Part shown: in pieces, positions 1,654 to 23,400 of the stretch | How the letters are laid out: each line of letters begins with the position of its first letter | Numbering within the stretch: position 1 is the first letter of the stretch | Assembly: GCF_947507565.1 (NCBI RefSeq) | Contig: NC_089176.1 | Location: 4,076,882-4,122,402, forward strand | Reading direction: 5' to 3' | DNA from: Oscarella lobularis | Lineage: Eukaryota | Length of the DNA: 45,521 nucleotides | The notes under the pieces: generated by a model | Databases searched by the model: none | What the model saw: the letters and a program-made list of their open reading frames with translations, nothing else | Told to the model about the DNA's origin: nothing | Program-made: the position numbers and the translations under genes

Positions 1654-2424
1654 GATTTATTTTAAGTGGACTGAACAATGTTGCTAAGGCATCGCTACTT
1701 TTTCAGCCGTTTAGAAATGCTCTAATTATAATTATTTAGTTAATAAATAAATAAATAAATAGTGGGAGTGGAATGAGTGCGTGCCTCTTTGTGAATTCCC
1801 CGGGTTCTGCGTATCTTATGCCTTTTATAGACTGTAGTAGATCAGTCAAGGCAGATAGAACGGATATGCTGCCATGCACGTGATATTCTACCACGTCTTC
1901 TCCTGTAAAACTGTTGGGGCCTACACAGTGTCACAAAGGTCGTTCGCCTATAATGTACAGGGTCTTACGTGGAAACCAGAGAGCCATGGCTTTGTCAATG
2001 AGTTCATACGTGACCGGATTGACGAGTTTTGTCAGTGTAGCTACTCTTGCTTGTGGAAAATGGTCCATTTTGCAAATATCTCGTAGAGTCTGGAGGCAGG
2101 AAAAACTGGAGGGATTGTCGGACTATCTGAGGTCGTACTTTAGAGGCCAAAGGCCCTGATACTCGAACAACAGCTACGCCTATAAGGGGAATGAGCTAGA
2201 AATGCCGTACTATAGAAGATTGTATTTCCCACCGCATTTTCCATGACCAGATGATAAAGCAAAGATCGTAGGCGACCAATTTCTGTCGCAAAAACATCGC
2301 AACTGTTGCAGAATTGCTCGATGACGTCGTTTGACCGATTTGAAGCAGAGAAATTGTGGCCAAGAAGGAAAACGTCGATTGAATAATACGGGCATGTCTT
2401 TTCTAACGTGCGTCTTGCGACGAG

Positions 2425-3003
2425 ATGTTGCTGGTTGGCCTTTCGGGCGGGATAGCAAGCGGTAAAAGCACCGTTTCGCGAATACTGTTGGACTGCGGAT
2501 GTCCTATCATCGACGCTGATCAAATAGCTCGCCAAATCGTGCAGCCGGGCTTGCCTAGCTGGCACGCGATCGTTCGCAAATTTGGCCGAGAAATTTTGAA
2601 CGAGGACGAAACGATAAATCGCGAAAAACTCGGAAAAATCATATTTGATGATCCAGCTAAGCGAAGAGTGCTGAACGGTTGCACGCATCCGGCCATTTTA
2701 CGCAGAATGTTGTGGCAAATTTTGACGAATTTTATTCGAGGAGAAAAAGTCGTAATTTTGGATTCTCCGCTTTTGTTTGAAAGTGGGACGTTTGTTCGAT
2801 ATGTTCATCGTACAATTGTTGTATGGTGTTGCGAGGAAAGGCAAATTGAGAGACTTTATCTTCGAAATGGATTTGATAGAGACAGCGCTCTCAAGAGAAT
2901 TCGTGCTCAAATGTCATTGGACGAAAAGCGTCGAAGGGCTACGTACGTTATTGATAATGACGGTCAGCTGGAAAATACAAGACAGCAAATTCAGGAAATT
3001 TGA
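2425..3003 (+). CDS. DCAKD: monofunctional dephospho-CoA kinase (DCAKD-like, CoaE family), lacking the C-terminal hydrophobic tail present in the 4943-5449 fragment
   Basis: 192-aa ORF MLLVGLSGGIASGKSTV... with Walker-A GGIASGKST. Collinear with remembered human DCAKD (MFLVGLTGGIASGKSS...ILDIPLLFE...). Ends QQIQEI* immediately before an acceptor-like ttatttgcag. Confidence 0.75.
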   Translation: MLLVGLSGGIASGKSTVSRILLDCGCPIIDADQIARQIVQPGLPSWHAIVRKFGREILNEDETINREKLGKIIFDDPAKRRVLNGCTHPAILRRMLWQILTNFIRGEKVVILDSPLLFESGTFVRYVHRTIVVWCCEERQIERLYLRNGFDRDSALKRIRAQMSLDEKRRRATYVIDNDGQLENTRQQIQEI

Positions 3004-3029
3004 TGAGTACTGTATTCCTTTCATTTATT

Positions 3030-4480
3030 TGCAGTACGTACTCAAGAAGGATTGAGCGTATGACACCCTAAAGGGCGTTGTCAATGAAATTGGGATTGTT
3101 CGTGGTGTTGCTAGTGGCTTAGACTATCTTCACAGGAGGGAAAAACCGATAAGTAAGGTGCTTAGCTTAGGTTTCTCAAGTAAGCCACTTTAATAACAAT
3201 TAATTAGCTCGTATAAATCTCACCCCCTGCTGGCGTACGTATAATGGAGAAAAACGGAAAGGCAGTAGCGAAGATTTGTGTTACAAGTACTTCGTCCGAA
3301 TTGAATGAACAGGCAATTAATTGCAATGGAAGGATTCATGTCTCCTGAATTCACCGTCAGAACAGTAGATGTGGGTAGGCGGGGCTGTGTGTCAGTGTCT
3401 TATTTCTGTAGAATCCTGATGCGGATGTCTTTTCGTTTGGATGTTTTGCGTACTACGTCATCACGAAAGGACAGCATCCATTCTGTGAACCGGGGAGCGG
3501 GAGCAGTGAGCGAAGCAAAATTCAGTCAAGAATAAACTCTGGCGAGCATAAACCTACTTTCGAAGCGTTGGAACGTAAGTTAATTAATCAATTGATTAAT
3601 TAAACACGTATTTAGTGCCGCTTTAATTAATATTTTTAAAATTTACTCTACGTAGATTTGGTGAGCAAAACCATGAAACTGGAGGTGGAAGAAGACGAAC
3701 TTAGACGTATAGGGAATCCAGCAGCAGCTTTGGCGCTTGTGAAATCTACGTTGGACGAAGGAAAAAAGTGAGTTTGCCTGTCAGTGCGTGCCTTCTCAGC
3801 AGATGCAGCTCGTTACTGTGAATAGGCCTTCATCTTGCTGTATTACAAGTCACTGTTACTTTTTCAACCCGGAACGCCAATGCCATTTTCATCATGTACG
3901 TGGTAATCATTACTCAACTTCGTTGTTGTTACGATTTCTACGCAGGATTTTGGCAATTGTACACCATTTTATGAAGGGAAGAGAACTGGTAATATGGACA
4001 TGGACCCGCTTTTGGACGAACTGTCTGAACACGAAAAAGAAGTCTTTGGTTCTACCAAGTGGGGAGTTCGACTTCTAAGTTTTGGAGCAAAAATAGAAAT
4101 TGAAAATGGTATTGTTTTCTCATAGTTAGTTCTTATCAACTCTTTGTTAAAAGCGTTCTAGATTTTCAGTTCAAGGTTGCATTTAAGGGTAAGGGCGGGA
4201 GAGATGCAGCCAAAAAGTACGACAATTCCATTCAAGGTTTTTCATATTTCCTGCGTGATCAAGTATGAAACTTCGTGTTTTCAAAAATAAACGAACTACA
4301 GAATGATACATGTAGTTTTCTCACGAACTTAACGATGAGAAAAAAAGAGAATTTTGGGAATCGGATGATAAGAAAGCATTGATGCTCAACCGTGGGTTTC
4401 CCAGGCTTCTTCCTGTGTGCTGGGACATAAGCAAGAAAATGCCCAATTTGTCCAAGTATCACTGCGACGAGAAGCATTAG
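3030..4480 (+). pseudogene. disrupted copy of the death-domain/pseudokinase family gene (kinase C-lobe exons + C-terminal exons), paralogous to 8640-10041
   Basis: Exon YVLKKD*AYDTLKGVVNEIGIVRGVASGLDYLHRREKPI carries an in-frame TGA. The next exon (3240-3540) is frameshifted relative to intact copy 8856-9194. Downstream exons (3640-3775, 3950-4078, 4370-4480 ...LNRGFPRLLPVCWDISKKMPNLSKYHCDEKH*) parallel 9228-10041. Confidence 0.45.
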
Positions 4481-4739
4481 ACAATGACCTCTTCATGATA
4501 TCTCTGCCTCTAACCCTTTTTCTAGTTCTACATTTTTACACTGTCAGTTGCACTCACTGACTGTTTTTTTTCTTCGTTTTATACTGTATGTCGTTAGTCT
4601 ATATGGATGCTGCTGGCCGGTCACTACTAATTAACCGTTCTCGGTATTTAATTAACGAAAGCTGTCCGAGGCTACCTGATGATGTACAGTACAGTGGAGA
4701 GGGCGTGCACTAGCCACCCCCGCGTACGGGAGTACGGGA

Positions 4740-5021
4740 GTGAGATTTCGATCCAAGATGGCGACTGCGAGCGAAAGAGACAGGGTTCCCAAAAGGCATC
4801 GCCTTCGGGCGGTGGCCAGCTACATCGGCCCATACTGGGAGCATATCGCTGACCACCTTCTACTCGAGTCCTCTTGTGAAAGGACCATTGAGAGGATTCG
4901 CCGTGATTACAAGTTCTCTCAAGATCAAGCTTTCCAAATGTTGTGCACGTGGTCGGAAATGTTTCATACGGAAGCTACAGAGGAGAAACTGTGCCTTGCT
5001 CTATTAAGCGAAGAGTGCTGA
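4740..5021 (+). CDS. death-domain-like exon (divergent DD subtype), fused in-frame to a DCAKD C-terminal fragment; probably a gene fragment or chimera
   Basis: LRAVASYIGPYWEHIADHLLLES...DYKFSQDQAFQMLCTWSEMFHTEATEEKLCLALLSEEC has the six-helix DD pattern (cf. DD at 10556-10909). Sequence then runs directly into RRVLNGCTHPAIL of DCAKD. Confidence 0.35.
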   Translation: MRFRSKMATASERDRVPKRHRLRAVASYIGPYWEHIADHLLLESSCERTIERIRRDYKFSQDQAFQMLCTWSEMFHTEATEEKLCLALLSEEC

Positions 5022-5449
5022 ACGGTTGCACGCATCCGGCCATTTTACGCAACATGTTGTGGCAAATTTTGACGAATTTCATTCGAGGAGAAAAAGTCGT
5101 AATTTTGGATTCTCCGCTTTTGTTTGAAAGTGGAACGTTTGTTCGATACATTCATCGTACAATTGTTGTATGGTGTTGCGAGGAGAGGCAAATTGAGAGA
5201 CTTTATCTTCGAAATGGATTTGATAGAGACAGCGCTCTCAAGAGAATTCGTGCTCAAATGTCATTGGATGAAAAGCGCCAAAGAGCTACGTACGTTATTG
5301 ATAATAACGATCAGCTGGAAAATACAAGACAGCAAACTCAACAAATTTACAAAGAACTCCTCAAGTCAAAGTGGTGTTTGATGGGCAGGATTTTTAGACT
5401 GTCTTGTTCTTTTCTTATAGGTCTTTTTGTAGCACTATGGTTTCTGTGA
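5005..5449 (+). pseudogene. partial duplicate of DCAKD (C-terminal half, KRRVLNGCTHPAIL onward) retaining the hydrophobic C-terminal tail
   Basis: ~90% nt identity to 2680-3003. Continues ...QQTQQIYKELLKSKWCLMGRIFRLSCSFLIGLFVALWFL*, matching the C-terminal membrane anchor of human DCAKD. No N-terminal P-loop half. Confidence 0.6.
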
Positions 5450-5523
5450 TAATACATTTAATTGGATTTATGAATTAGTGAGCCAGTGACGCGCGAGTCG
5501 TTTATACGGGAATTGCAACGAAC

Positions 5524-5926
5524 ATGTCGTCGAAACTGCCGCACGATCTAGCCGCCGGCGCTGGACAGAAATTGCCAAGTGCGATTCGTCGTCTCAAGGA
5601 TAGAGGGAATGGTTGTAGTAGCGTAGAACGATTTTACAGACGAGATACTTCTCGACCTCGCGAAGAAAATCGGCGGAAAGTGGGATTTTGTAGCAGTCCG
5701 GCTTGGGTTGGCAGATCACGAAACTGAGAATATCCGTGACAATTTCACGAAAGTGCAAGACCGAGCTTTTGAAATGTTGAAGACGTGGCGACAGAATGCC
5801 TTCAAAGACGCAACTCGTACCAATCTCTGTATCGCCTTGCTTAAAGAAAAATTGAAGAGTATCGCGTCGGAAACTTTTGGGGATGACTTTGTTGAAGGGG
5901 TCGACAAATCATTATCGCAGAAGTGA
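5524..5926 (+). CDS. death-domain gene copy A (DD exon followed directly by the family's terminal 'atgatttgtccaagtatcactgcgagaagcat' element; kinase region deleted)
   Basis: ILLDLAKKIGGKWDFVAVRLGLADHETENIRDNFTKVQDRAFEMLKTWRQNAFKDATRTNLCIALLKEKLKSIASETFGDDFVEGVDKSLSQK is a full-length DD. Upstream ATG (5524) lies in a conserved leader shared with copies at 6416 and 7740. Confidence 0.45.
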
Positions 5927-6059
5927 AGGTGATTTTCAAGAAACACGATGATTTGTCCAAGTATCACTGCGAGAAGCATCCGACAGTGTGATATCTCTGC
6001 TCTAGCTCTTTTTCTAGTTTTTACGCTGTTACTTTCTTTCTTTTGCTTTTTGTTATTAT

Positions 6060-6300
6060 CATACGGGCATGTTCAATGTGGATACAGTAGCAAGCGGCGA
6101 AAGCACCGTTTCGCGAGTACAGTTGGATTGCGGATCGACGCCGATCAAATAGCTCGCCAAATCGTGCAGCCGGGCTTGCCTAGCTGGCACGCGATCATTC
6201 GCAAATTTGGCCGAGAAATTTTGAACGAGGACGAAACGATAAATCGCGAAAAAGTCGATCCAGCCAGCTAAGCGAAGAGTGCTGAATGGTTCCAGCTATT
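6060..6300 (+). pseudogene. degraded N-terminal DCAKD fragment (P-loop deleted)
   Basis: gtagcaagcggcgaaagcaccgtttcgcgagtacagttggattgcggatcgacgccgatcaaatagctcgccaaatcgtgcagccgggcttgcc... matches 2455-2650 with deletions. Encodes ...IDADQIARQIVQPGLPSWHAIIRKFGREILNEDETINREK then degenerates. Second near-identical copy at 6940-7185. Confidence 0.6.
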
Positions 6301-6335
6301 TTACGCAGCACTTCACGAGTAGTCTGGAGGCCACA

Positions 6336-6418
6336 CCTATGCCACGGTCACGTGCAAGGGTCAGGTGACCTGACTACTTCACGAGCGAGTCGATTATACG
6401 GGAATTGCAACAAACATG
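6336..6418 (+). promoter_or_regulatory. conserved leader/promoter-like element of the DD gene copies (E-box CACGTG + inverted AGGTCA-like repeat GGTCAGGTGACC + cgagtcgattatacgggaattgcaac.aacATG); repeated at 7661-7742 and partially at 5480-5526
   Basis: Near-identical 80-bp block immediately upstream of the ATG of DD copies B and C. Copy A keeps only the 3' half (gcgcgagtcgtttatacgggaattgcaacgaacATG). Confidence 0.3.
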
Positions 6419-6805
6419 GCGGCGCACGTCGGGGCTGGAGAAGAATTGTCAGGTACAATCCGTCGTCCCAAGGATAGAGAATGATTGTAGCAGCGTAGAA
6501 ACGATTTTACAGATAAGACACTTCTCGACGTCGCGAAGAAAATCGGCGGAAAGTGGGATTTTGTAGCAGTCTGGCTTACGCCCAAGTTGGAAGAGCATGA
6601 AATTGACAATATCAAAGCCAATTTTACGAGAGTACAAGACCAAGCTTTTGAAATGTTGAAGATGTGGCGAAAGAATGGCCACAAAGCTGCAACTCCTACC
6701 AATCTCTGTGTCGCCTTGCTTGAAGAAAAGTTGAAGAAAATCGCGTCGGAAACTTTTGGGGATGACTTTGTTGAAGGGGTCGACAAATCATTATCGCAGA
6801 AGTGA
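6416..6805 (+). CDS. death-domain gene copy B (truncated paralog)
   Basis: Conserved leader ...cgagtcgattatacgggaattgcaacaaacATGgcggcgcac. DD TLLDVAKKIGGKWDFVAVWLTPKLEEHEIDNIKANFTRVQDQAFEMLKMWRKNGHKAATPTNLCVALLEEKLKKIASETFGDDFVEGVDKSLSQK. ~880 bp tandem repeat relative to copy A. Confidence 0.45.
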
Positions 6806-6939
6806 AGGTGATTTTCAAGAAACACGATGATTTGTCCAAGTATCACTGCGAGAAGCATCCGACAGTGTGATATCTCTGCTCTAGCTCTTTTTCTAGTTTT
6901 TACGCTGTTACTTTCGTTCTTTCTTTTGCTTTTTGTTAT

Positions 6940-7185
6940 TATCATACGGGCATGTTCAATGTGGATACAGTAGCAAGCGGCGAAAGCACCGTTTCGCGAG
7001 TACAGTTGGATTGCGGATCGACGCCGATCAAATAGCTCGCCAAATCGTGCAGCCGGGCTTGCCTAGCTGGCACGCGATCATTCGCAAATTTGGCCGAGAA
7101 ATTTTGAACGAGGACGAAACGATAAATCGCGAAAAAGTCGATCCAGCCAGCTAAGCGAAGAGTGCTGAATGGTTCCAGCTATTTT
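6940..7185 (+). pseudogene. second degraded N-terminal DCAKD fragment (tandem repeat of 6060-6300)
   Basis: Near-identical to 6060-6300; part of an ~880-bp tandem repeat that also carries DD copy B. Confidence 0.6.
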
Positions 7186-7739
7186 ACGCAGCACTTCACG
7201 AGTAGTCTGGAGGCCACACCCTTCGCTCGGGAGGAAGGGTCTGGCCAAACGCGCATGGTCCAAGTGTTGCATGCGGTACGCGCTAAACGAATTAAGTTAT
7301 TAGAGACGCCCTACGTCATAGCTTCGACATCGCAAAAGCGAGACAACTAGGGGAGAATTGGAACGTCTAGGCGATCGTACGCAGAAGCGACGAGCTCCGC
7401 AGCAGAGGAGTTCGTCGTTTTCGCGTACTACATTGCTTTCTTTCGCGTACGATCGCCACGTTTTCGCTTACGATCGCGTACGATTGGATGGCTTAAGCGT
7501 GCGATCGACCTGGATCGCTCATCGCTACTCCTATAAAAACATTCGAGGGCGATAAACGGTTAGAACAGCTAATTGGCCCCTACGTCACAGACAACTCGGC
7601 CTGTGATTGGGCCGCACTCCACAGTGCGGGGTGCAACACATCCCCCCCTCCCGATTGACCTGACCCCACGGTCACGTGCAAGGGTCAGGTGACCTGACTA
7701 CTTCACGAGCGAGTCGATTATACGGGAATTGCAACAAAC

Positions 7740-10041
7740 ATGGCGGCGCACGTCGGGGCTGGAGAAGAATTGTCAGGTACAATCCGTCGTCCCAAGGATA
7801 GAGAATGATTGTAGCAGCGTAGAAACGATTTTACAGATAAGACACTTCTCGACGTCGCGAAGAAAATCGGCGGAAAGTGGGATTTTGTAGCAGTCTGGCT
7901 TACGCCCAAGTTGGAAGAGCATGAAATTGACAATATCAAAGCCAATTTTACGAGAGTACAAGACCAAGCTTTTGAAATGTTGAAGATGTGGCGACGGAAT
8001 GACCACAAAGCTGCAACTCGTACCAATCTCTGTGTCGCCTTGCTTGAAGAAAAGTTGAAGAAAATCGCGTCGGAAACTTTTGGGGATGACTTTGTTGAAA
8101 GGGTCGACAAATTATTATCGCAGAAGAGAGAAGGTGATTTTCATGATTTGCAAAACAATAGGCCCATTACCGGTGCTACTGGTACATTTCTTGTAGAAAT
8201 TGAAAAGAGAGGCCAAGACGATAAGAGGGTTTTTGATCTTGAAAATGAGCCGTTCTTCCAGGATATGCATAGGTATGGCCAAATAGATGCAGTAGTTTTA
8301 GTTTTGCAAATTGTTTGAATGGCTAGAGGTTATTTTGTACGTCATCAAAATCAAAAGAAACGTTTGGTGGCTGTCAGAAAAGCTCCTTTGAATGACAAAC
8401 GGATGAGCAATGAAATGGATATCTTGGAATCGAGAAAATGCGACAATTTGATTGGATTTATTGATGTCGTGGTAAGTCTACGGTACCATGTAGCGAGGAC
8501 GTGTATTAGATGTCTACTGCAGACGATTGACACCGTTTGGCACTGCTGTCTTCAATATTGTGAATATTCAGTAGAACAAGTAGGTGCCCAGTCTCTAGTT
8601 GTGCCATCATAGATGCCATACGCTATGTGTATTCCTTTAATTTATTTGTAGTATGTACTTAAGAAGGATGACGCATATAAAACCCTAAAGGGCGTTATCT
8701 ACGAAATTGACATTGTTCGTGGTGTTGCTAGCGGTTTAGACGATCTTCACAGCAGGGAAAAACCAATAAGTAAGGTGCCTGGTTTCGTGTAGGGTCATAT
8801 TCTCTTTAATAATCAATTAGCTCATATAAATCTCGCCCCTGCTGGCGTACGTATAATGGTGGACGAAAACGGAAAGGTAGAAGCAAAAATTTGTGACATA
8901 AGTACTTCGCCCAGATTGTACGAACATGCAATTGCAATGGAAGGATTCATTGTCAGAACAGTAGATGTGGGTAGGTGGGGCTGTGTGTCAGTATCTTACT
9001 TTCTGCAGAATCCAAGTCCTGATGTGGATGTCTTTTCGTTTGGATGTTTTGCGTACTACGTCATCACTAACGGAAAGCATCCGTTCAGTGAGCCTGGGAG
9101 CGTGAGCAGTGAGCTAAGCGAAATTCAGTCAAGAATAGACTCTGGCAAGTTTGAACCTAATTTTGAAGCGTTGGAAGGTAAGTCGATTAATTAATTAATT
9201 AAACGCGTATTTTAGTGTGGTCTTACTATACGTAGATTTGGTGAACAAAAGCGTGGAACTGAAGGTGAAAGAAGACAAAATTAGACGTATAGGGAATCCA
9301 GCAGCAGCTTTGGCGCTTGTGAAATCTACATTGTCTGAAGGAAAAAAGTGAGTTTGCCTGTCAGTGCGTGCATTCTCAGCAGATGCAGCTCGTTACTGTG
9401 AATAGGCCTTCATCTTGCTGTATTAAAAGTCACTGTTACTTTTTCAAGCCGGGTCGCCAAGTTGAATTTCATTGGGTACGCTGTAATCATTACTCAACTT
9501 CATTGTTGTTACAATTTCTATGCAGGATTTTGGCGGTACTACACCATTTTATGAAGGGGAGAAAACTGACAACGAGGATATGGACTCGCTTTTGGACGAA
9601 CTGTCTAGACACGATGAAGACGTCGTTGGTTGGAAAGGTCGACTTGAAAATTTGGGAGCAAAAAAGGGTAGTGTTCTCATAGTAAATTCTCATCAACTCT
9701 TTGTTGAAAGCGCTTCTAGAATTTTTGAGCAAGCAGCTCGTCAGGCACAAAAAATGCGGAGATAACGTCCAATCTTTTTCAAAATTCCTGCGTAATCAAG
9801 TATGAAACTTCATGTTTTCGAAAATAAACTAATTACACAACGGCACGTACATGTAGTTCTCCCACAAACAAAACAGGGACGAAATAAGAGAGTTTTTTGA
9901 ATCGGATGAGAAGAGTGCATTGTTACTCAACCGTGGGTTTCCCAAGCTTCTTCCTGTATGTTGGGAAATAAGCAAGAAGTTGTTGTTGTTGCAAAAACAA
10001 CATGATTTGTCCAAGTATCATTGCGAGAAGCATTTTTCATA
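7740..10041 (+). CDS. death domain + pseudokinase gene (IRAK/Pelle-like domain order), multi-exon; most complete member of the local family, possibly itself inactivated by one in-frame stop
   Basis: DD exon 7825-8130. Same-frame continuation into a kinase N-lobe (8319-8471: ...KKRLVAVRKAPLNDKRMSNEMDILESRKCDNLIGFIDVV|gtaag) but with a TGA at 8316-8318. Exon 8655-8777 (...GVASGLDDLHSREKPI|gtaagg). Exon ~8860-9190 (NGKVEAKICDISTSPRL...DVFSFGCFAYYVITNGKHPF...|gtaag). C-terminal exons 9228-9345, 9520-9690, ~9880-10041 (...LSKYHCEKHFS*). VAIK Lys->Arg, HRD->HSREKP, DFG->DIS. Confidence 0.5.
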
Positions 10042-10393
10042 GGCTTCATGACATTTCCGCCTCTAGCTCTTTTTCTACTACTGCTGTCAGTTGTCGTACT
10101 TTCAATGCGCTGTTTTATTCGATTTTTTACCCTGGCTTTTTTTACTGTTGTTATTGAATATACGGACGTGGTAATAGCACCGTATGACAGTCAAAGTGGG
10201 TGTTTGGTGGGCCGGATTTTTAGACTGTCTTGTTCTTTTCTTATAGGTCTTTTGCAGCAATTTGGTATCTAGGCTGATAATTAATGGCGAACGAGGGCGG
10301 CCTGTGACTGGTTACAGCACGTGCGCAGCGCAACCAACCATACATGGTATGGCGCAACTCGAGCGCGGGTGTGGTAATACGGGCTTCAGCGAA

Positions 10394-13300
10394 CATGGCG
10401 TCGCAAAAAGAAGACTCTCCTGCCAGAAGAGGGTCTACGCCATCTTCATCTTCGACGCGTGACGAGTTTCTTGACGACAATTTAGAGCAAGAAAATTCCT
10501 CTTGCAGCTTTCGTTATGGTAGAGAGGAGTTAGCAGGTAAATAATCGCTAAAAGAGTGGATGAAAACCGTACTAGTAACTACGCTCACTTTATAGAAGAC
10601 CTACTTCTCGATTTGGCGAAGAAAATTGTTTCTTTTTGGCCAAATTTGGCAATCAGGCTGAAGTTGGAGAGAAGTGATATCGATGCTATCGAACTCGATG
10701 TAGAGAAAGTTCAAAACCGAGCGTTCAAAATGCTGATGACATGGAAAGAGCAGGTCTACGAAAAGGCAAATGCTTTCAGTCTTTGCCAAGCTTTGCTTGA
10801 GGAGAAAAGACGGGACATTGCTTTGGAGATTTTTGGAAAAGACTTGGTTAGGAACGTCGAAAGTTCCGCAGAAGGTGATACAGTATTAAATCAGGCTGCC
10901 TTACAATGATGTCTGTTTCTCTTACAGCCGCAAAGAGTGCAAAGGGCTCCCTGCTGTCTTTGGATAATTCAGGAATTGAGAAGGGAGAGAAAAAAATTCT
11001 GGAAGAAAGCTTGCCGCCTCAGTCAAGCTTTAAGCCAACGTTGGGAAGTGAGTCTAGTGGAAAATGTCTTTTGAATCATCACAGTCTTCCTCTCTTGCCG
11101 GAATCGTTTTGCGGGAGAGATGACGTTATACGAGATGTCATTCGGTGTATTGAAGAAGACAAAATTCCTCTTTGCTGGCTTTGGGGGCCACCCGGATGCG
11201 GCACAAGCACTGTCGGAATTGCAGTTCTTCACAGGATACGTGACAGACGGGGAACGCCAAGCGCTGTAGCGGTAAAAGCTTCTCGGTTTTCGTTTCTTCA
11301 ACTGCAAGAACTTATTCGCTCACATTTACGGCAACTTTCTGAGCATGATCATTGTACGTTTCTCGTTGACGGATACGACGAGAATTTAGAGCACCACGAG
11401 AAGGATTTTCTCGTGGCAATTGAGGATTTTGTTCAAGAGCTGGGCAAGGAATTTACTGTGTTGGTGACTTCACATAAAAAGTCTTCTTGCTTTATTGGCG
11501 CATTGCGCGTTGAATCAATTGAAGTCAGCTGGCTTGGAGACGAAGAAGCAACGGAATTGTTGACTTGGCACTATACGGGAGGGAAGAAAGATAGGGTTTC
11601 TGATGACTCTATTCATAAATACCTGAAGCGTCTCGCTCTACGTTGTGATGGAATTCCTTTTGTCCTCAAAGCTGTTGGTTCAGCAGGATATGCAGCTTGT
11701 CATTCTCGTTCTGATCGCGTGTCTATGGAACGTTCAATACGTAACTCGCAGAGGGTTCTTCGCTTAGACAACGCTTTGTTTGAACGGTTTTGCAGCAGTT
11801 TTGATCCAGAAGGAGAAGGACTTGAGGCCTGCTTCAAGACGTGTCATGAACGTTTGCCAGAGGAACTAAAAGTCTTCATTCTGGGTCTGGCTATTATCTC
11901 GGATTCATTTTCTGCCGATTTTGGACGAAAAATTCTTGGTCTTAAACAAAAAGAAAGCGATAGGATTATGACTCGCTTAAAAGATCGGGGCTTGATTACT
12001 TCTTGTCAGCGCAAAAGGGGCCAAGGCTACCGTCAAAGCTACTGTATTCCACGATATTTACGCCAATACCTTATGGCTAAAAGCCAGTCAAGCACCGAAC
12101 AGTGTGTAGCTGCAGCGAGAGCAAGATACTTTGAAAAAATTCGAGAGGTTATCACACATATTTCTAAACGTCTTCGAGATAAAAGGCAGAGCGATGCTCT
12201 GCAGACTTTTACAGATCACAGAAGCAGAATACTTGGTTTTCTTCAGTTGCCCTCCAGCATTTTAGATTCGAAAGCCCATGAAGTTACTATGGCCATCTGC
12301 AAATCTGCTTACGTGAAAAATGTCTTGCTTGACTACGTATTAGTAGACACGCTTCGCCTGTTTTGCGAAACCAGCTTGGATCGTATTGCCAAATCGGACT
12401 CTAAAAGCAAACAGGACGAAGCTTATATTGCTATCTTTTTAGCGCAAATCGTATTAAAGCAGCAGCGGTACCGGCAAGGTGATCTAAAGAAAATAGATGG
12501 TATGCTGCAGGCCGTCGTAAAAGAAGGTACTTTACCGAAAGAGATTTTGCTTCAGCGCAAGATAGCGCAAGCTCAAATTTTAATGGCAAAGGGCGAGCAT
12601 TTTAACGCCGTCGATTTATTAGAAAGGAAGAAAAAGAAAGTGAGTTTATCAGCACTCGCTATTCTTGGAAAAGCGTCGTATCAGCTTGGTATTCGTAACG
12701 CGGCAGATTCGCAATCGGAAGAGGAATTTTGGAAGATTGTGCGTCCTCATTTTGAAGAAGCGAGAGAATGTTTTGCTAAATGCATTGAAAATTTAGCGAA
12801 GAACGATAGCCTGACATGTCTGTATACAATGTGGATTGGAGACTGCTGCTTCTTGATGCGAGAGTATGGCAAAGCGCTGAGAGCCTACGAAGAACTTCTA
12901 AAAGTAGAAGACAGTGTAAATTGGCCCAATACGGGAAGCGACTTTGTTAGCAGGAAGAGGACGCGAGTGTCAGCCACTTACTACGCGTTAGGGCTGTCTC
13001 ACCTACAACTTCACGTCAAGGAAGGAGGCTGGGATGCTAAAGATTTAGCTTTCTGTCTTGCTTCTTTAGATGCTTCAATACAAGGACTCGCTGCAGGGTT
13101 TCCCTACTCTTGCTTTCTTTCAGACGTTGTGTATCGGGCGAGAGGAATAGTGCTTTTGCTACTGGCTTTGAAGGAGCAGTGGAAGACTTCCTCCAACCAG
13201 CCAAACCGTCACGTTGTTGCCTACCTAAGCAAGGCTGTAGAGTCGTTCACGGAGATTTCTTGCAGAAATTCGGTTCTCACTAATGAACGAAAAGCTTTTC

Positions 13301-13929
13301 TTGACGTCGCGAATGCATATAAAGAAGGGCGAACGGTCTCTCCTGAAACCAAGCTCGTTTCAAAATCAGCGCGAATTTTATTGGACCTAACACCTGGCTC
13401 TGAAAAATCGAAGGTGAAGCTTCTTTTTGCCAAGTCTCTTTTGTATCTCGATATTGTTGAAAAAGACAGAAATCAAAGACTGGTGTCTCATGAAAAAGCT
13501 TTGTCTTATGAAAGAGCTTTTGATTCGGACTTGGATGCGTCTGATTCTGAAGACGATGATGACGATGACGATGATGACGATGAAGACGGTGACGGCGTTC
13601 CCGACTCCTCCTATGAACATCAAACAGCATATGCAGCAAGCCGTTTCCAAAGACGAAAAGTTATGAAAGGATTCGTAAATTGCTTTTTGCCATCTTGGAC
13701 AAATGAGACAATTCAATCACAGTCTAATGGAACTGGTCTCAATGAAACGCAAACATTGGCATCTGAGCTGATCACATCGTCTGTTGAGTGGGCAGATCTT
13801 ACGTACTCCGGTCTTCCCGGGCGTTCTTGTCCTGCGAGAGCTAAAAATTCTAGTGGCAACTACTCGTCATCCGATTTCACTACTCGGAAGTCCGCAAAGA
13901 CTGGTCCTCCTGTGATGGACCACTCTTGA
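10394..13929 (+). CDS. death domain - P-loop STAND NTPase (NACHT/NB-ARC-like, Walker-A Lys replaced by Thr) - TPR-like helical repeat protein; NLR-like/Apaf-like architecture
   Basis: Candidate exon 1 MASQKEDSPARRGS... (10394-~10536). DD exon 10556-10909 (...LDLAKKIVSFWPNLAIRLKLERSDIDAIELDVEKVQNRAFKMLMTWKEQ...CQALLEEKRRDIALEIFGKD). 1007-codon ORF 10906-13929 with LWGPPGCGTSTVGIAVL (Walker A, K->T), CTFLVDGYDE (Walker B), long helical C-terminus and acidic tract. DD/NTPase junction differs in frame and the splice is unresolved. Confidence 0.6.
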
Positions 13930-20401: not shown

Positions 20402-23400
20402 ATGCTCTCTCGTTTTCTCTTCTTTGCTTCGGCGGCTCTCATCGCCGTCACTTGGGCTACAAACAGAAGTACGCATCATCTCTTATACTTTGTTTTTTTT
20501 GGGGGGTTTTTTGACGCGTGCTGTGTTTCCCAGGCCCTGGATTTCCTTGTTTTGGGGCTCCCGTTGTTCGTAATCGGTACAGTTCAAAGTGGCAACAGTG
20601 TTCGGCTCGCGAAGCGTGTCCCTCTGGATCGTGGTGTCATCGCAGTCCTTTCACTTATTGGCCCAGTGTGTGCTGTCCAGGTAAGGAGACTAATAATGAA
20701 TTGATTTGATTAATTGATTTGATTTGATTGATTGTGTGCACTAAATAGGATGCAAATCGCCCGAAGGTGAAGTCGTTCCCGTTGGAGCTCGATATTCCAG
20801 GGGTCCCTGTGTCTCATGCCAATGTGGCTATGATAATAAGGCAAAGAAAGTCCGCGAAATCTGTTCGACTGTTTCCTGTCTGCGTCCTGTTTGCAACACG
20901 GCTCTCGTCACTCCGCCTGGACAATGTTGTCCTATCTGCCCCAAGGGTAAAAGAAGCTCATCTTACAAGTTGGTTTTTCATTTGAATATGTTTTCTTTTA
21001 GCCTGCACTCCCAACCCGTGTGAAAACGAGGGAAAATGTCTCGTCAATCCCCGAGATCCCAAGCAATTCACGTGTCAGTGTGTCGATGGATTTAAAGGAA
21101 GAAAGTGCGAGATCAGTAAGTCGTCTCTTTGTCTTCTTTCTGAGGTCTGATAACCGTCGTTCTACGTCTCTAGATATTGACGAATGCGCGAGCAATCCGT
21201 GCTTGAACGACGGAATGTGCGCTGACGGAGTCAACGGATTCATGTGCGAATGCGAAGACGGTTTCATGGGAGATTTTTGCGAGACAGACATTGACGAATG
21301 CGAGAGCGATCCGTGCTTGAATGGAGCCACGTGCGTCGACAAGCGAAACGCATTCGAGTGCCAATGCGCCGACGGTTTCGAAGGGGAGACGTGCGAAATA
21401 AGTAAGGAATTGAAAACGGCCGCGTGAATTTCTTTTATTTAATCGTTTTAGATATTGATGATTGTGCTGATGAGCCGTGTGAAAACGGTGGCACTTGCGT
21501 CGATCAGGTCGATTCTTTTGTCTGCAAATGTGCGCTTGGTTTTGAGGGAGACGAATGTGAAATTGGTAAGAGCGACGAAACAAGAAAAAGAAGAAGAATT
21601 CTTATTTTTATTTTTATTTTAGATATTGATGATTGTGCTGATGAGCCATGTCAGAATGGCGGAGCTTGCGTCGATCAGGTAAACGACTTTATGTGCAATT
21701 GTGCTGATGGATACGAAGGTGAAACGTGTGAAATTGGTACGTGCGTTAGTTAGACGTTTCTCCTGCTACAATACACTATTTTTTCCTCTTTCAGATATTG
21801 ATGAATGTGAGAGCGATCCTTGTCAGAACGGTGCCACGTGCATCGATCAAGAAAACGGCTTTGAGTGTCAATGTGCCGACGGTTATGAGGGCGATCTCTG
21901 TGAAATTGGTACAATGATAGAATCAATAGTCGTTGAACCCTCTAAACTGTTTATTTTTATGATCAGATATTGACGAGTGTGATGCGGAGCCCTGTCAGAA
22001 TAACGGCGTTTGCACCGATTTGGTGAACGGATTTGAGTGCGATTGCGCTGACGGTTACGAAGGAGACATGTGCGAAATTGGTAAACAATAGATAATAATT
22101 AATAATTAATAATTGAGTATTGCGTGTATGTAGATATTGATGAATGTGCCAGTGATCCGTGTCAGAATGATGGCACGTGCATTGACCAAGTCGCCGGCTT
22201 TGAATGCGAATGCGCTGACGGTTATGAAGGAGATGTCTGCGAAATCGGTAAAACTAATAAATAATTCAATAATAATCAAACTTACTACTACGGTATAGAC
22301 ATTGATGAATGCGAGAGCGATCCGTGTTTGAATGGTGCCACGTGCGTCGATCAGGTCAATGGATTCGAATGCCAATGCGCCGATGGTTACGAAGGAGAGA
22401 CGTGTGACGTTGGTAAGTTTTGCGTCATATTTTGATGGATAGTGGTGTGATTTTTGTATTGAAGATATTGATGAATGCGCGAGTGATCCGTGTGAAAACG
22501 ATGGCGTGTGCAAGGACGAAGTCAACGGCTTTGTGTGCGATTGTCAGGACGGATTTGAAGGCGATCAGTGTGAAATAAGTGAGAAAATAATAATGCCGCT
22601 TTATTTATATATGAGGTTACTGTTGTTAGACATTGATGAATGCGCAAGTCGTCCCTGTCAAAATGGAGCCAATTGCGTCGATCTCGTCAACGCGTTTGAA
22701 TGCGAATGCGAGGATGGATTTACGGGAGATTTGTGTGAAGTTGGTAAGAAGAAATTCAATAAATCAATAACTAGTGATCAATGGTGACGATAGATATTGA
22801 CGATTGTGCTGATGAACCGTGTCAGAACGGAGGCACGTGCGTTGATCAAGTGAACGGTTTCGTTTGCATGTGTGAAGACGGTTTCGAGGGAGACGTCTGT
22901 CAAACAGGTACCACCATGGACTCACTCTCTCTCTAATAAATCTGACGTGTGATTACAGATATTGATGAGTGCGATAGTGATCCGTGTTTGAATGGAGGAC
23001 AATGCTTCGACGAAGTCAACGGTTTCCGATGCGAGTGCGCTCCTGGATACGAAGGAGACGTCTGCGAAGAAGGTACCAGTAAAAAATTAAATAATCATAA
23101 ATAAATAATTAATTTTAGATATTGACGAATGCGCTTCGGATCCTTGCTTGAATGACGGTACTTGTGTCGATCGTATTGCCTCCTTCGAATGCCGATGTCG
23201 CCGAGGATTTGCTGGAGATTTGTGTGAAGAAGGTGACGCAATGATCCACGTGTGTCTCACTCAATCATTATTTTTTATTTTTTTGTTTTAGAAATTGACG
23301 AATGCGAATCGATCCCGTGTCAAAATGGTGCCAAGTGCGTCGATCAAGAAGGACGATTTGAATGTCGATGTCTTCCCGGCTATCAGGGAGATTTGTGCGA

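Follow-up and report, generated by a model that had tools for sequence, protein, structure and literature searches.

In both IRE1 and RNase L, an active ribonuclease (RNase) is assembled from two kinase-extension nuclease (KEN) domains, brought together when the kinase or pseudokinase domains dimerise back-to-back. The trigger is oligomerisation of an N-terminal module, namely the endoplasmic reticulum-luminal domain in IRE1 and ankyrin repeats that bind 2',5'-oligoadenylate (2-5A) in RNase L; IRE1 moreover depends on trans-autophosphorylation. The domain roles of RNase L are summarised in PMC10400998, according to which RNase L proper arose in jawed vertebrates from a kinase-RNase protein that already existed, through the gain of the ankyrin repeats that define its lineage. 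Here, we describe a gene of the homoscleromorph sponge Oscarella lobularis (NCBI RefSeq assembly GCF_947507565.1, contig NC_089176.1) that, given this origin of RNase L, would be an independent derivation. The gene lies on the plus strand at 7740-10042 of a stretch of 45,521 nucleotides (contig positions 4,076,882 to 4,122,402; hereafter the window). It very probably encodes an intact protein of 539 amino acids (P0001) that joins a death domain to a dead kinase of the IRE1 type and a KEN RNase domain. That this protein would act as a proximity-activated RNase, by analogy with IRE1 and RNase L, is a proposal to which we give slightly less than even odds. Weighing identity and mechanism together, we assign the favoured reading a probability of roughly 55%.

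P0001 maps to the window in 13 blocks at 100% identity, from the ATG at 7740 to the stop codon TAG at 10040-10042. The spliced coding sequence of 1620 nt corresponds exactly, in translation, to P0001 plus the stop codon, and after boundary refinement all 12 introns carry GT..AG ends and measure 50-72 nt. The sequence of P0001 is not new, as it is already present in RefSeq under an automatic name, 'serine/threonine-protein kinase/endoribonuclease IRE1-like [Oscarella lobularis]', which it shares with its paralog P0002. The features of the gene are the following:

7740-7776, 7837-8133, 8197-8272, 8327-8471 and 8523-8579, plus strand: exons 1-5, by exact mapping of P0001
8652-8769, 8821-8951, 9009-9177 and 9236-9347, plus strand: exons 6-9, by exact mapping of P0001
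9406-9475, 9526-9667, 9720-9799 and 9857-10042, plus strand: exons 10-13, by exact mapping of P0001
8273-8326, plus strand: intron 3, 54 nt, containing a TGA at 8316-8318, by exon mapping and GT..AG check
~7845-8072, plus strand: death domain, residues 16-91, in exon 2 (Pfam Death, 30 bits, E 5.7e-7, cutoff 22.6)
8364-8381, plus strand: strand beta3, L-V-A-V-R154-K155, where the family consensus is V-A-V-K-R and the VAIK lysine has become Arg
helix C: Glu kept (NEMDIL), as in the family consensus
8823-8846, plus strand: catalytic loop H245-I-N-L-A-P-A-G252, equivalent of HRDxKPxN, with Asp to Asn247, Lys to Ala249 and Asn to Gly252
8895-8903, plus strand: DFG equivalent D269-I-S, with the aspartate kept and Phe-Gly changed to Ile-Ser
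~9431-10039, plus strand: predicted KEN domain of the HEPN type, exons 10-13, residues ~390-539, starting at 'HCYFF' (IRE1 'HPFFW')
9755-9757, plus strand: Cys464, where the family has a conserved KEN tyrosine (consensus 'RKYxG'; Tyr in P0002)
9791-9865, plus strand: R476-N477-Q-F-S-H481 (Rx4H), the active-site motif of KEN, interrupted by intron 12 (9800-9856) and aligned to the family motif RNKxxH

The original prediction for this locus, made from the DNA letters, had recognised an in-frame TGA at 8316-8318 and left it as either a sign of decay or part of an unrecognised intron. The latter proved correct: the TGA falls into intron 3, is no coding stop, and the reading frame is intact after splicing. 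Likewise, the TAG at 8649-8651 is the acceptor of intron 5 and no nonsense codon, and two would-be frameshifts, near 9347 and 9750, are explained by introns 9 and 11. A gene model with an exon 'MPYAMCIPLIYL*', a nonsense TAG at 8649 and frameshifts at ~9347 and ~9750 is excluded by the exact mapping of P0001, which assigns these positions to intron sequence or splice sites.

Three observations argue that the tiny introns are real and not artefacts of annotation software. Compared with a truncated paralogous fragment upstream (copy 1, see below), the lengths of exons 9-13 differ by 0, 0, +21, +21 and -21 nt, all multiples of three, while introns 9-12 differ by 0, 0, +1 and -4 nt; frame-preserving changes in exons, set against intron changes that do not respect the frame, support the exon/intron model. 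An unrelated EGF-like repeat gene of the same window (21172-23586) has a period of 114 nt across directly adjoining exons, lengthened to 165 nt wherever they are separated by an AT-rich GT..AG intron of ~51 nt, so that introns of ~50 nt are normal in the O. lobularis genome. Finally, another Oscarella open reading frame, P0007, is 70% identical over the death-domain exon and departs immediately past the conserved donor of intron 2. In-frame stops and apparent frameshifts in this genome thus usually mean introns of 50-70 nt. Raw three-frame translations of 2401-10600 gave Pfam matches to Death and CoaE alone; the kinase escaped detection on account of the short exons.

The N-terminal death domain and the protein-kinase fold behind it, both part of the original prediction, are each detected in P0001 by Pfam (Pkinase, 41 bits, cutoff 31.7). 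The proposed likeness to IRAK proteins did not stand. A single-sequence phmmer search of the PDB returned IRE1 as the top 16 matches (best E 2e-10), and a profile of three Oscarella proteins matched IRE1 at E 3.5e-21, roughly ten orders of magnitude better than the next kinases, SOBIR1 and B-Raf (1e-11 to 1e-9). No IRAK was found among the best 60 PDB profile matches or the Foldseek top 50, and no RNase L among those 60 profile matches. A HMMER search of 1.84 billion representative proteins gave 169 matches at E < 1e-3. Most of those scanned with Pfam are Pkinase plus Ribonuc_2-5A proteins, an architecture present in 22 of the 25 sequences of alignment A1 (P0001, P0002 and 23 selected HMMER matches, aligned with MAFFT) and in seven of ten in a second scanned set; their N-termini are luminal/PQQ, ankyrin, leucine-rich repeat (LRR) or tetratricopeptide repeat (TPR) modules. 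These searches place the kinase of P0001 in the IRE1/RNase L lineage and not in that of the IRAKs.

Catalytic motifs were assigned from three independent alignments: phmmer against IRE1 structures, the MAFFT family alignment, and a custom hidden Markov model of the family together with a profile comparison against the PDB. As had been proposed, the VAIK lysine is replaced (VAVRK), with R154 aligned to the Lys of the family consensus VAVKR. The catalytic Asp of HRD is also substituted, at another site than the 'HSREKP' named originally: this peptide (within 8733-8768) forms the end of helix E, where 'GLDDLHS' corresponds to 'GLAHLHS' of IRE1, and the true equivalent is H245-I246-N247 at 8823-8831, one exon downstream. 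The DFG Asp, held to be lost as well, is kept, since D269-I-S aligns to D-F-G. P0001 is therefore a true pseudokinase under the operational definition of at least one lost residue; only two of the three canonical catalytic residues are gone (VAIK Lys and HRD Asp), not all three. In addition, the Gly-rich loop GxGxxG is absent from P0001 and the activation segment is at least 10 residues shorter than in aligned relatives. From this loss of motifs, the kinase is predicted to be no longer able to transfer phosphate. Outside the species, the nearest relative is the O. pearsei transcript P0003 (EukProt; 44% identity). It retains HRDLKPSN and DFG, from which it follows that the pseudokinase state arose recently, within Oscarella.

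Intron 2 (8134-8196; 63 nt) is in frame and free of stops, and if retained would encode GDFHDLQNNRPITGATGTFLV. Its stretch 'TGATGTFLV' resembles the Gly-rich loop 'HGAEGTIVY' of IRE1 and may, judged by this resemblance, be a relic of the lost loop. Retention of intron 2 as a functional Gly-rich loop ('ITGATGTFLV') was rejected, as it left the profile score unimproved and the paralogous P0007 diverges at the donor site.

The C-terminal third of the gene is predicted to encode a KEN/HEPN ribonuclease domain. The original description of the locus, correct as to death domain and kinase, had missed this domain, which IRAK2, IRAK3, Tube and MLKL, the proteins to which the product had been likened, lack. 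A custom profile built from 22 other IRE1/RNase L-family proteins, with Oscarella sequences excluded, aligns residues 292-532 of P0001 (C-lobe plus KEN) at 90.5 bits, running through 'FLRNQFSH' and 'RGFPKLLP'. Contiguous HMMER alignments to kinase plus Ribonuc_2-5A proteins extend to residues ~514-534. An AlphaFold2 model of P0001 (predicted local distance difference test (pLDDT) 77.5, predicted template modelling score 0.76) covers kinase and KEN mostly at pLDDT 70-97 per ten-residue block, with short dips to ~50-56; within the KEN part, blocks from residue ~420 reach ~68-95 after a dip to 56 at residues 411-420, and the death domain is poorly modelled. Searched with Foldseek, this model returned only IRE1 kinase-RNase chains among the top 50, over 410-465 aligned columns and with target-normalised TM-scores of 0.67-0.81. 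The KEN domain is a member of the HEPN superfamily, in which Rx4-6H forms the RNase active site and the Arg, the next polar residue and the His all contribute (PMC3710099). Every sequence of alignment A1 has the Arg of R476, conservation reaches at least 90% for N477 and H481, and the 'RGFPxLLP' block is conserved as well.

At the N-terminus, the death domain occupies the place of ankyrin repeats, for which P0001 gave no Ank-family Pfam match. Pfam likewise found no luminal or PQQ domain, and no transmembrane segment was detected in P0001 (maximum Kyte-Doolittle average over 19 residues, 1.32). Having no hydrophobic segment, P0001 would be soluble, unlike IRE1. As originally noted, the gene adjoins a death-domain STAND gene:

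10556-10909 (death domain) and 10906-13929 (remainder), plus strand: gene for a death domain, STAND NTPase and TPR-like C-terminus, immediately downstream

This neighbour scores 37 bits for Pfam Death, 27.6 bits for NPHP3_N (cutoff 24.8) and 22.9 bits for NB-ARC. Over the death domain, it shares 45% identity with P0001 (BLASTP E 1e-21). In the representative library, the open reading frame of the neighbour's death domain (P0015) and a tandem death-domain protein (P0013) were the two top-scoring death-domain matches outside the gene's own fragments. Judging from these data, the STAND/TPR protein is probably the recruiting partner of P0001 through its death domain.

How might such a protein work? 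Death domains are known to build helical oligomers (PMC11874512), and with one as N-terminal module, activation by induced proximity is the simplest model. Oligomerisation of the death domain would take the place of luminal or 2-5A sensing as the trigger. A death-domain assembly would form around the activated neighbouring STAND-TPR (NLR-like) protein, or around another death-domain platform, and would recruit and cluster P0001. The dead kinase would serve as a dimerisation scaffold only, juxtaposing two KEN domains, and the clustered KEN domains could then cut RNA and bring about translation shut-down or cell death. This scheme, drawn by analogy, agrees with what was suggested in 2013 for further fusions of DEATH and HEPN domains, those of sponges and cnidarians (PMC3710099).

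The gene is not alone at this locus. The window contains further copies and fragments upstream of it:

3011-4524, plus strand: copy 1, a paralogous fragment with equivalents of exons 6-13 only; 77% DNA identity to 8628-10077
5489-6019, plus strand: death-domain-only remnant 1, in which exon 1 and the death-domain exon are joined to the last ~80 nt of the gene; 82% identity to 7705-8146
6342-6898, plus strand: death-domain-only remnant 2, with 6342-6820 98% identical to 7666-8146 and 6820-6923 matching 9995-10103

Copy 1 starts directly after the stop codons of CoaE (dephospho-CoA kinase), an intact intronless open reading frame at 2425-3003 (Pfam, 200 bits), and its exons 1-5 are absent. It is broken, as originally described, by a TGA at 3053-3055 in the exon-6 equivalent and, in the exon-7 equivalent, by a +1 frameshift at ~3222-3226 and a 4-nt insertion at ~3319. 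Its 3' exons (9-13, 3656-4480) are intact and encode residues 375-577 of P0002 exactly, and residues 1-374 of P0002 are not found in the window; either a near-identical paralog lies elsewhere on the scaffold or the gene model of P0002 is chimeric. The N-terminus of P0002 (residues 1-150) carries a different module in place of the death domain. A TIR assignment reached only a Pfam E-value of 0.007, below the cutoff, and this part gave no PDB match or informative homologs and an unusable single-sequence AlphaFold2 model (pLDDT 44); we therefore do not claim it as TIR. The 3' part of remnant 1 (5951-6019) matches the 3' end of copy 1 (4446-4527), itself aligned to the gene near 10000-10077. Remnant 2 is, by its near-identity, best taken as a very recent copy of the gene's 5' end. 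Partial CoaE copies (5005-5348, 6088-6308 and 6971-7191; 82-95% identity) are interleaved with the death-domain fragments, and a divergent death-domain open reading frame at 4740-5021 adjoins a CoaE fragment at ~5005. Taken together, the locus is a birth-and-death cluster in which a single copy is intact, another is truncated and two are reduced to the death domain. The suggestion that the family is decaying thus applies to copy 1 and the remnants, and not to the intact gene (copy C). A homolog search seeded with P0003 returned no further Oscarella members of the family.

The cluster lies close to a chromosome end. The window ends in a telomere, (GGGTTA) x55.7, i.e. (TTAGGG)n, at 45188-45521, so that the cluster is subtelomeric, ~35 kb from the end. 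The telomere is preceded by subtelomeric repeats of 141, 288 and 429 bp (43907-45253) that contain blocks of TTAGGG; further inward, at 43273-43580, lies a perfect microsatellite with a unit of 10 bp, (AGCTTAGCCC) x31. A 7.3-kb tandem segmental duplication occupies 25639-32959 and 33222-40580 (86-92% identity), each copy with a minus-strand open reading frame of 311-314 amino acids (25644-26579; 33227-34171) that has a Gly/Ala-rich hydrophobic centre and no significant Pfam match. At the opposite end of the window, the open reading frame 31-1653 belongs to another STAND gene, of which it covers the C-terminal, TPR-like portion; this portion is recognisable as a paralog of the C-terminus encoded at 10906-13929, and STAND genes have therefore also been duplicated in the cluster.

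Between copy C and copy 1, the 187 aligned codons of exons 9-13 gave a nonsynonymous rate (dN) of 0.232 and a synonymous rate (dS) of 0.233, i.e. a dN/dS of 1.0 (bootstrap 95% 0.65-1.7). Introns 7 (8952-9008; 95% identity), 9 (9348-9405; 98%) and 10 (9476-9525) span 90-98% identity to copy 1, and the flanking exons only 80-89%. Conserved introns together with frame-preserving indels would fit diversifying selection with patchy gene conversion, and relaxed constraint may also account for a dN/dS near 1. Several blocks are shared with P0003 despite an overall identity of 44%, namely RIGNPAAAL, SSCCxKSHCYF, FLRNQxxH, RGFPxLLP and SKYHC, and this conservation across species argues for a maintained function.

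Several points weigh against the favoured reading. Pfam Ribonuc_2-5A (PF06479) gives no match on P0001; it reached 20.1 bits (E 7e-4), below the cutoff of 23.3, only on a conceptual translation that wrongly included intron 11. The C-terminal 199 residues alone gave no KEN match in a phmmer search of the PDB. The fold match is not fully independent of the sequence matches, because the alignment behind the AlphaFold2 model is dominated by IRE1-family sequences. The conserved KEN tyrosine is Cys464 in P0001, and Lee et al. (2008) reportedly showed that yeast Ire1 requires the equivalent Tyr for activity. The dN/dS of 1.0 is compatible with relaxed constraint, and the adjacency to the STAND gene could merely reflect subtelomeric segmental duplication.

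These points bear on three other explanations. In the one that survives best, a corrected version of the original adaptor idea that we nonetheless consider unlikely, P0001 is a non-catalytic adaptor or scaffold whose kinase and KEN domains are both dead, and which bridges death-domain complexes or binds RNA uncut, in the manner of IRAK3, Tube or inactive HEPN domains. The kinase is indeed thoroughly dead, and HEPN domains without full motifs have been proposed as RNA binders (PMC3710099). P0002 and copy 1 possess the KEN tyrosine and carry Asp for the KEN Asn, so that, with Cys464 in P0001, each paralog misses one classical catalytic residue. However, several LRR-type members of the family that pass Pfam Ribonuc_2-5A also lack the KEN tyrosine, which is therefore not universal in the family, and R476, N477 and H481 are intact in P0001 and conserved with the O. 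pearsei relative in spite of an overall identity of 44%.

Less probable still is that the gene is a young, effectively neutral subtelomeric duplicate on its way to a pseudogene, intact by chance and with no maintained function. The dN/dS of about 1 against copy 1 and the nearby telomere would suit such an origin, as would the surrounding debris of a truncated copy, death-domain-only remnants and CoaE fragments, and the degeneration of catalytic motifs relative to the O. pearsei protein with its HRD and DFG. Neutral decay sits poorly, however, with a frame of 540 codons kept open over 13 exons with 12 canonical pairs of splice sites, with exon indels against copy 1 (exons 9-13) that are all multiples of three next to intron indels that are not, and with family-specific motifs conserved across species. 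Moreover, several introns are more conserved than the exons, which points to diversifying selection or gene conversion and not to uniform neutral decay.

A regulator of canonical IRE1, which would form a back-to-back heterodimer with the cytosolic part of IRE1 and either couple death-domain signalling to the unfolded-protein response or damp it, is very improbable. In favour of this reading, no protein comes nearly as close to P0001 as IRE1 in structure and sequence; against it, the identity to IRE1 is only 18-24%, and literature searches yielded no precedent.

Returning to the death-domain-activated RNase, a wider scenario may be put forward as a tentative one. In homoscleromorph sponges, a kinase-KEN module derived from IRE1 would have been independently converted to a soluble RNase serving immunity or cell death, activated by death-fold oligomerisation downstream of an NLR-like death-domain STAND-TPR sensor and possibly, in P0002, through another N-terminal adaptor module. 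Such a protein would be a functional analogue of the effector arm of the OAS-RNase L system that needs neither 2-5A nor nucleotide binding, and its evolution would have been shaped by diversifying selection within a birth-and-death cluster near the telomere. Literature searches found no description of a death domain joined to a KEN or IRE1-like architecture, and the combination of death domain, pseudokinase and KEN is unmentioned in the text of the 2023 paper on the origin of RNase L (PMC10400998). No second Death plus Pkinase plus Ribonuc_2-5A protein was present among the 44 matches scanned for domains, a limited sample and not a census. Should the RNase prove active, animals would have built regulated RNA decay into an innate-immune or cell-death response on more than one occasion, by exchanging the sensor or adaptor module. 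The many death-domain and NLR-like genes of sponges would also gain a concrete, testable effector. The gene further lends itself to asking, as a natural experiment, if nucleotide must be bound by the kinase or pseudokinase at all for KEN to be activated.

Among known systems, MLKL differs in both modules: neither its N-terminal four-helix-bundle executioner domain nor its RIPK3-regulated pseudokinase is matched by P0001, which has a Pfam Death domain and an IRE1-type kinase. IRAK2, IRAK3, Tube and Pelle share with P0001 the succession of a death domain and a kinase fold, and recruitment into death-domain assemblies is likely in both cases, but the kinase of P0001 is of another lineage and is followed by the KEN RNase domain. 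Fusions of DEATH and HEPN domains have been described in Sacsin-like proteins of Amphimedon and in the CXorf38 and DZIP3 families (Anantharaman et al. 2013, PMC3710099), and DEATH-HEPN RNase fusions in sponges and cnidarians were predicted to be suicide or defence effectors that link RNA degradation to apoptosis or defence (PMC3710099). P0001 resembles these in placing a death-fold adaptor on an RNase domain of the HEPN superfamily in an early-branching animal. Its HEPN domain, however, is of the KEN type and sits inside a kinase-KEN module; the KEN fusions of the HEPN survey comprise kinase, ankyrin, CCCH, UBI and BRCT, and DEATH is not among them (PMC3710099).

IRE1 is the nearest relative of P0001 in sequence and predicted fold, in kinase and KEN alike. 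P0001 differs from it in having no signal peptide, luminal domain or transmembrane segment, in the death domain at its N-terminus, and in a catalytically dead kinase with a shortened activation loop. In overall design, P0001 resembles RNase L, likewise a soluble, cytosolic protein, in which a regulatory module at the N-terminus also precedes the pseudokinase, and the pseudokinase a KEN RNase bearing R-N-x3-H; in both, the pseudokinase is presumed to serve dimerisation only, and both have an innate-immune flavour. The regulatory module of RNase L consists of 2-5A-binding ankyrin repeats and that of P0001 of a death domain, and the kinase of P0001 is nearer in sequence to IRE1 than to RNase L. 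Degeneration also runs deeper in P0001: HRD and D-F-D persist in those members of the alignment that are RNase L-like. Thus, the kinase-RNase chassis of RNase L appears to be wired here to another input, a death domain, and combined with a more complete pseudokinase.

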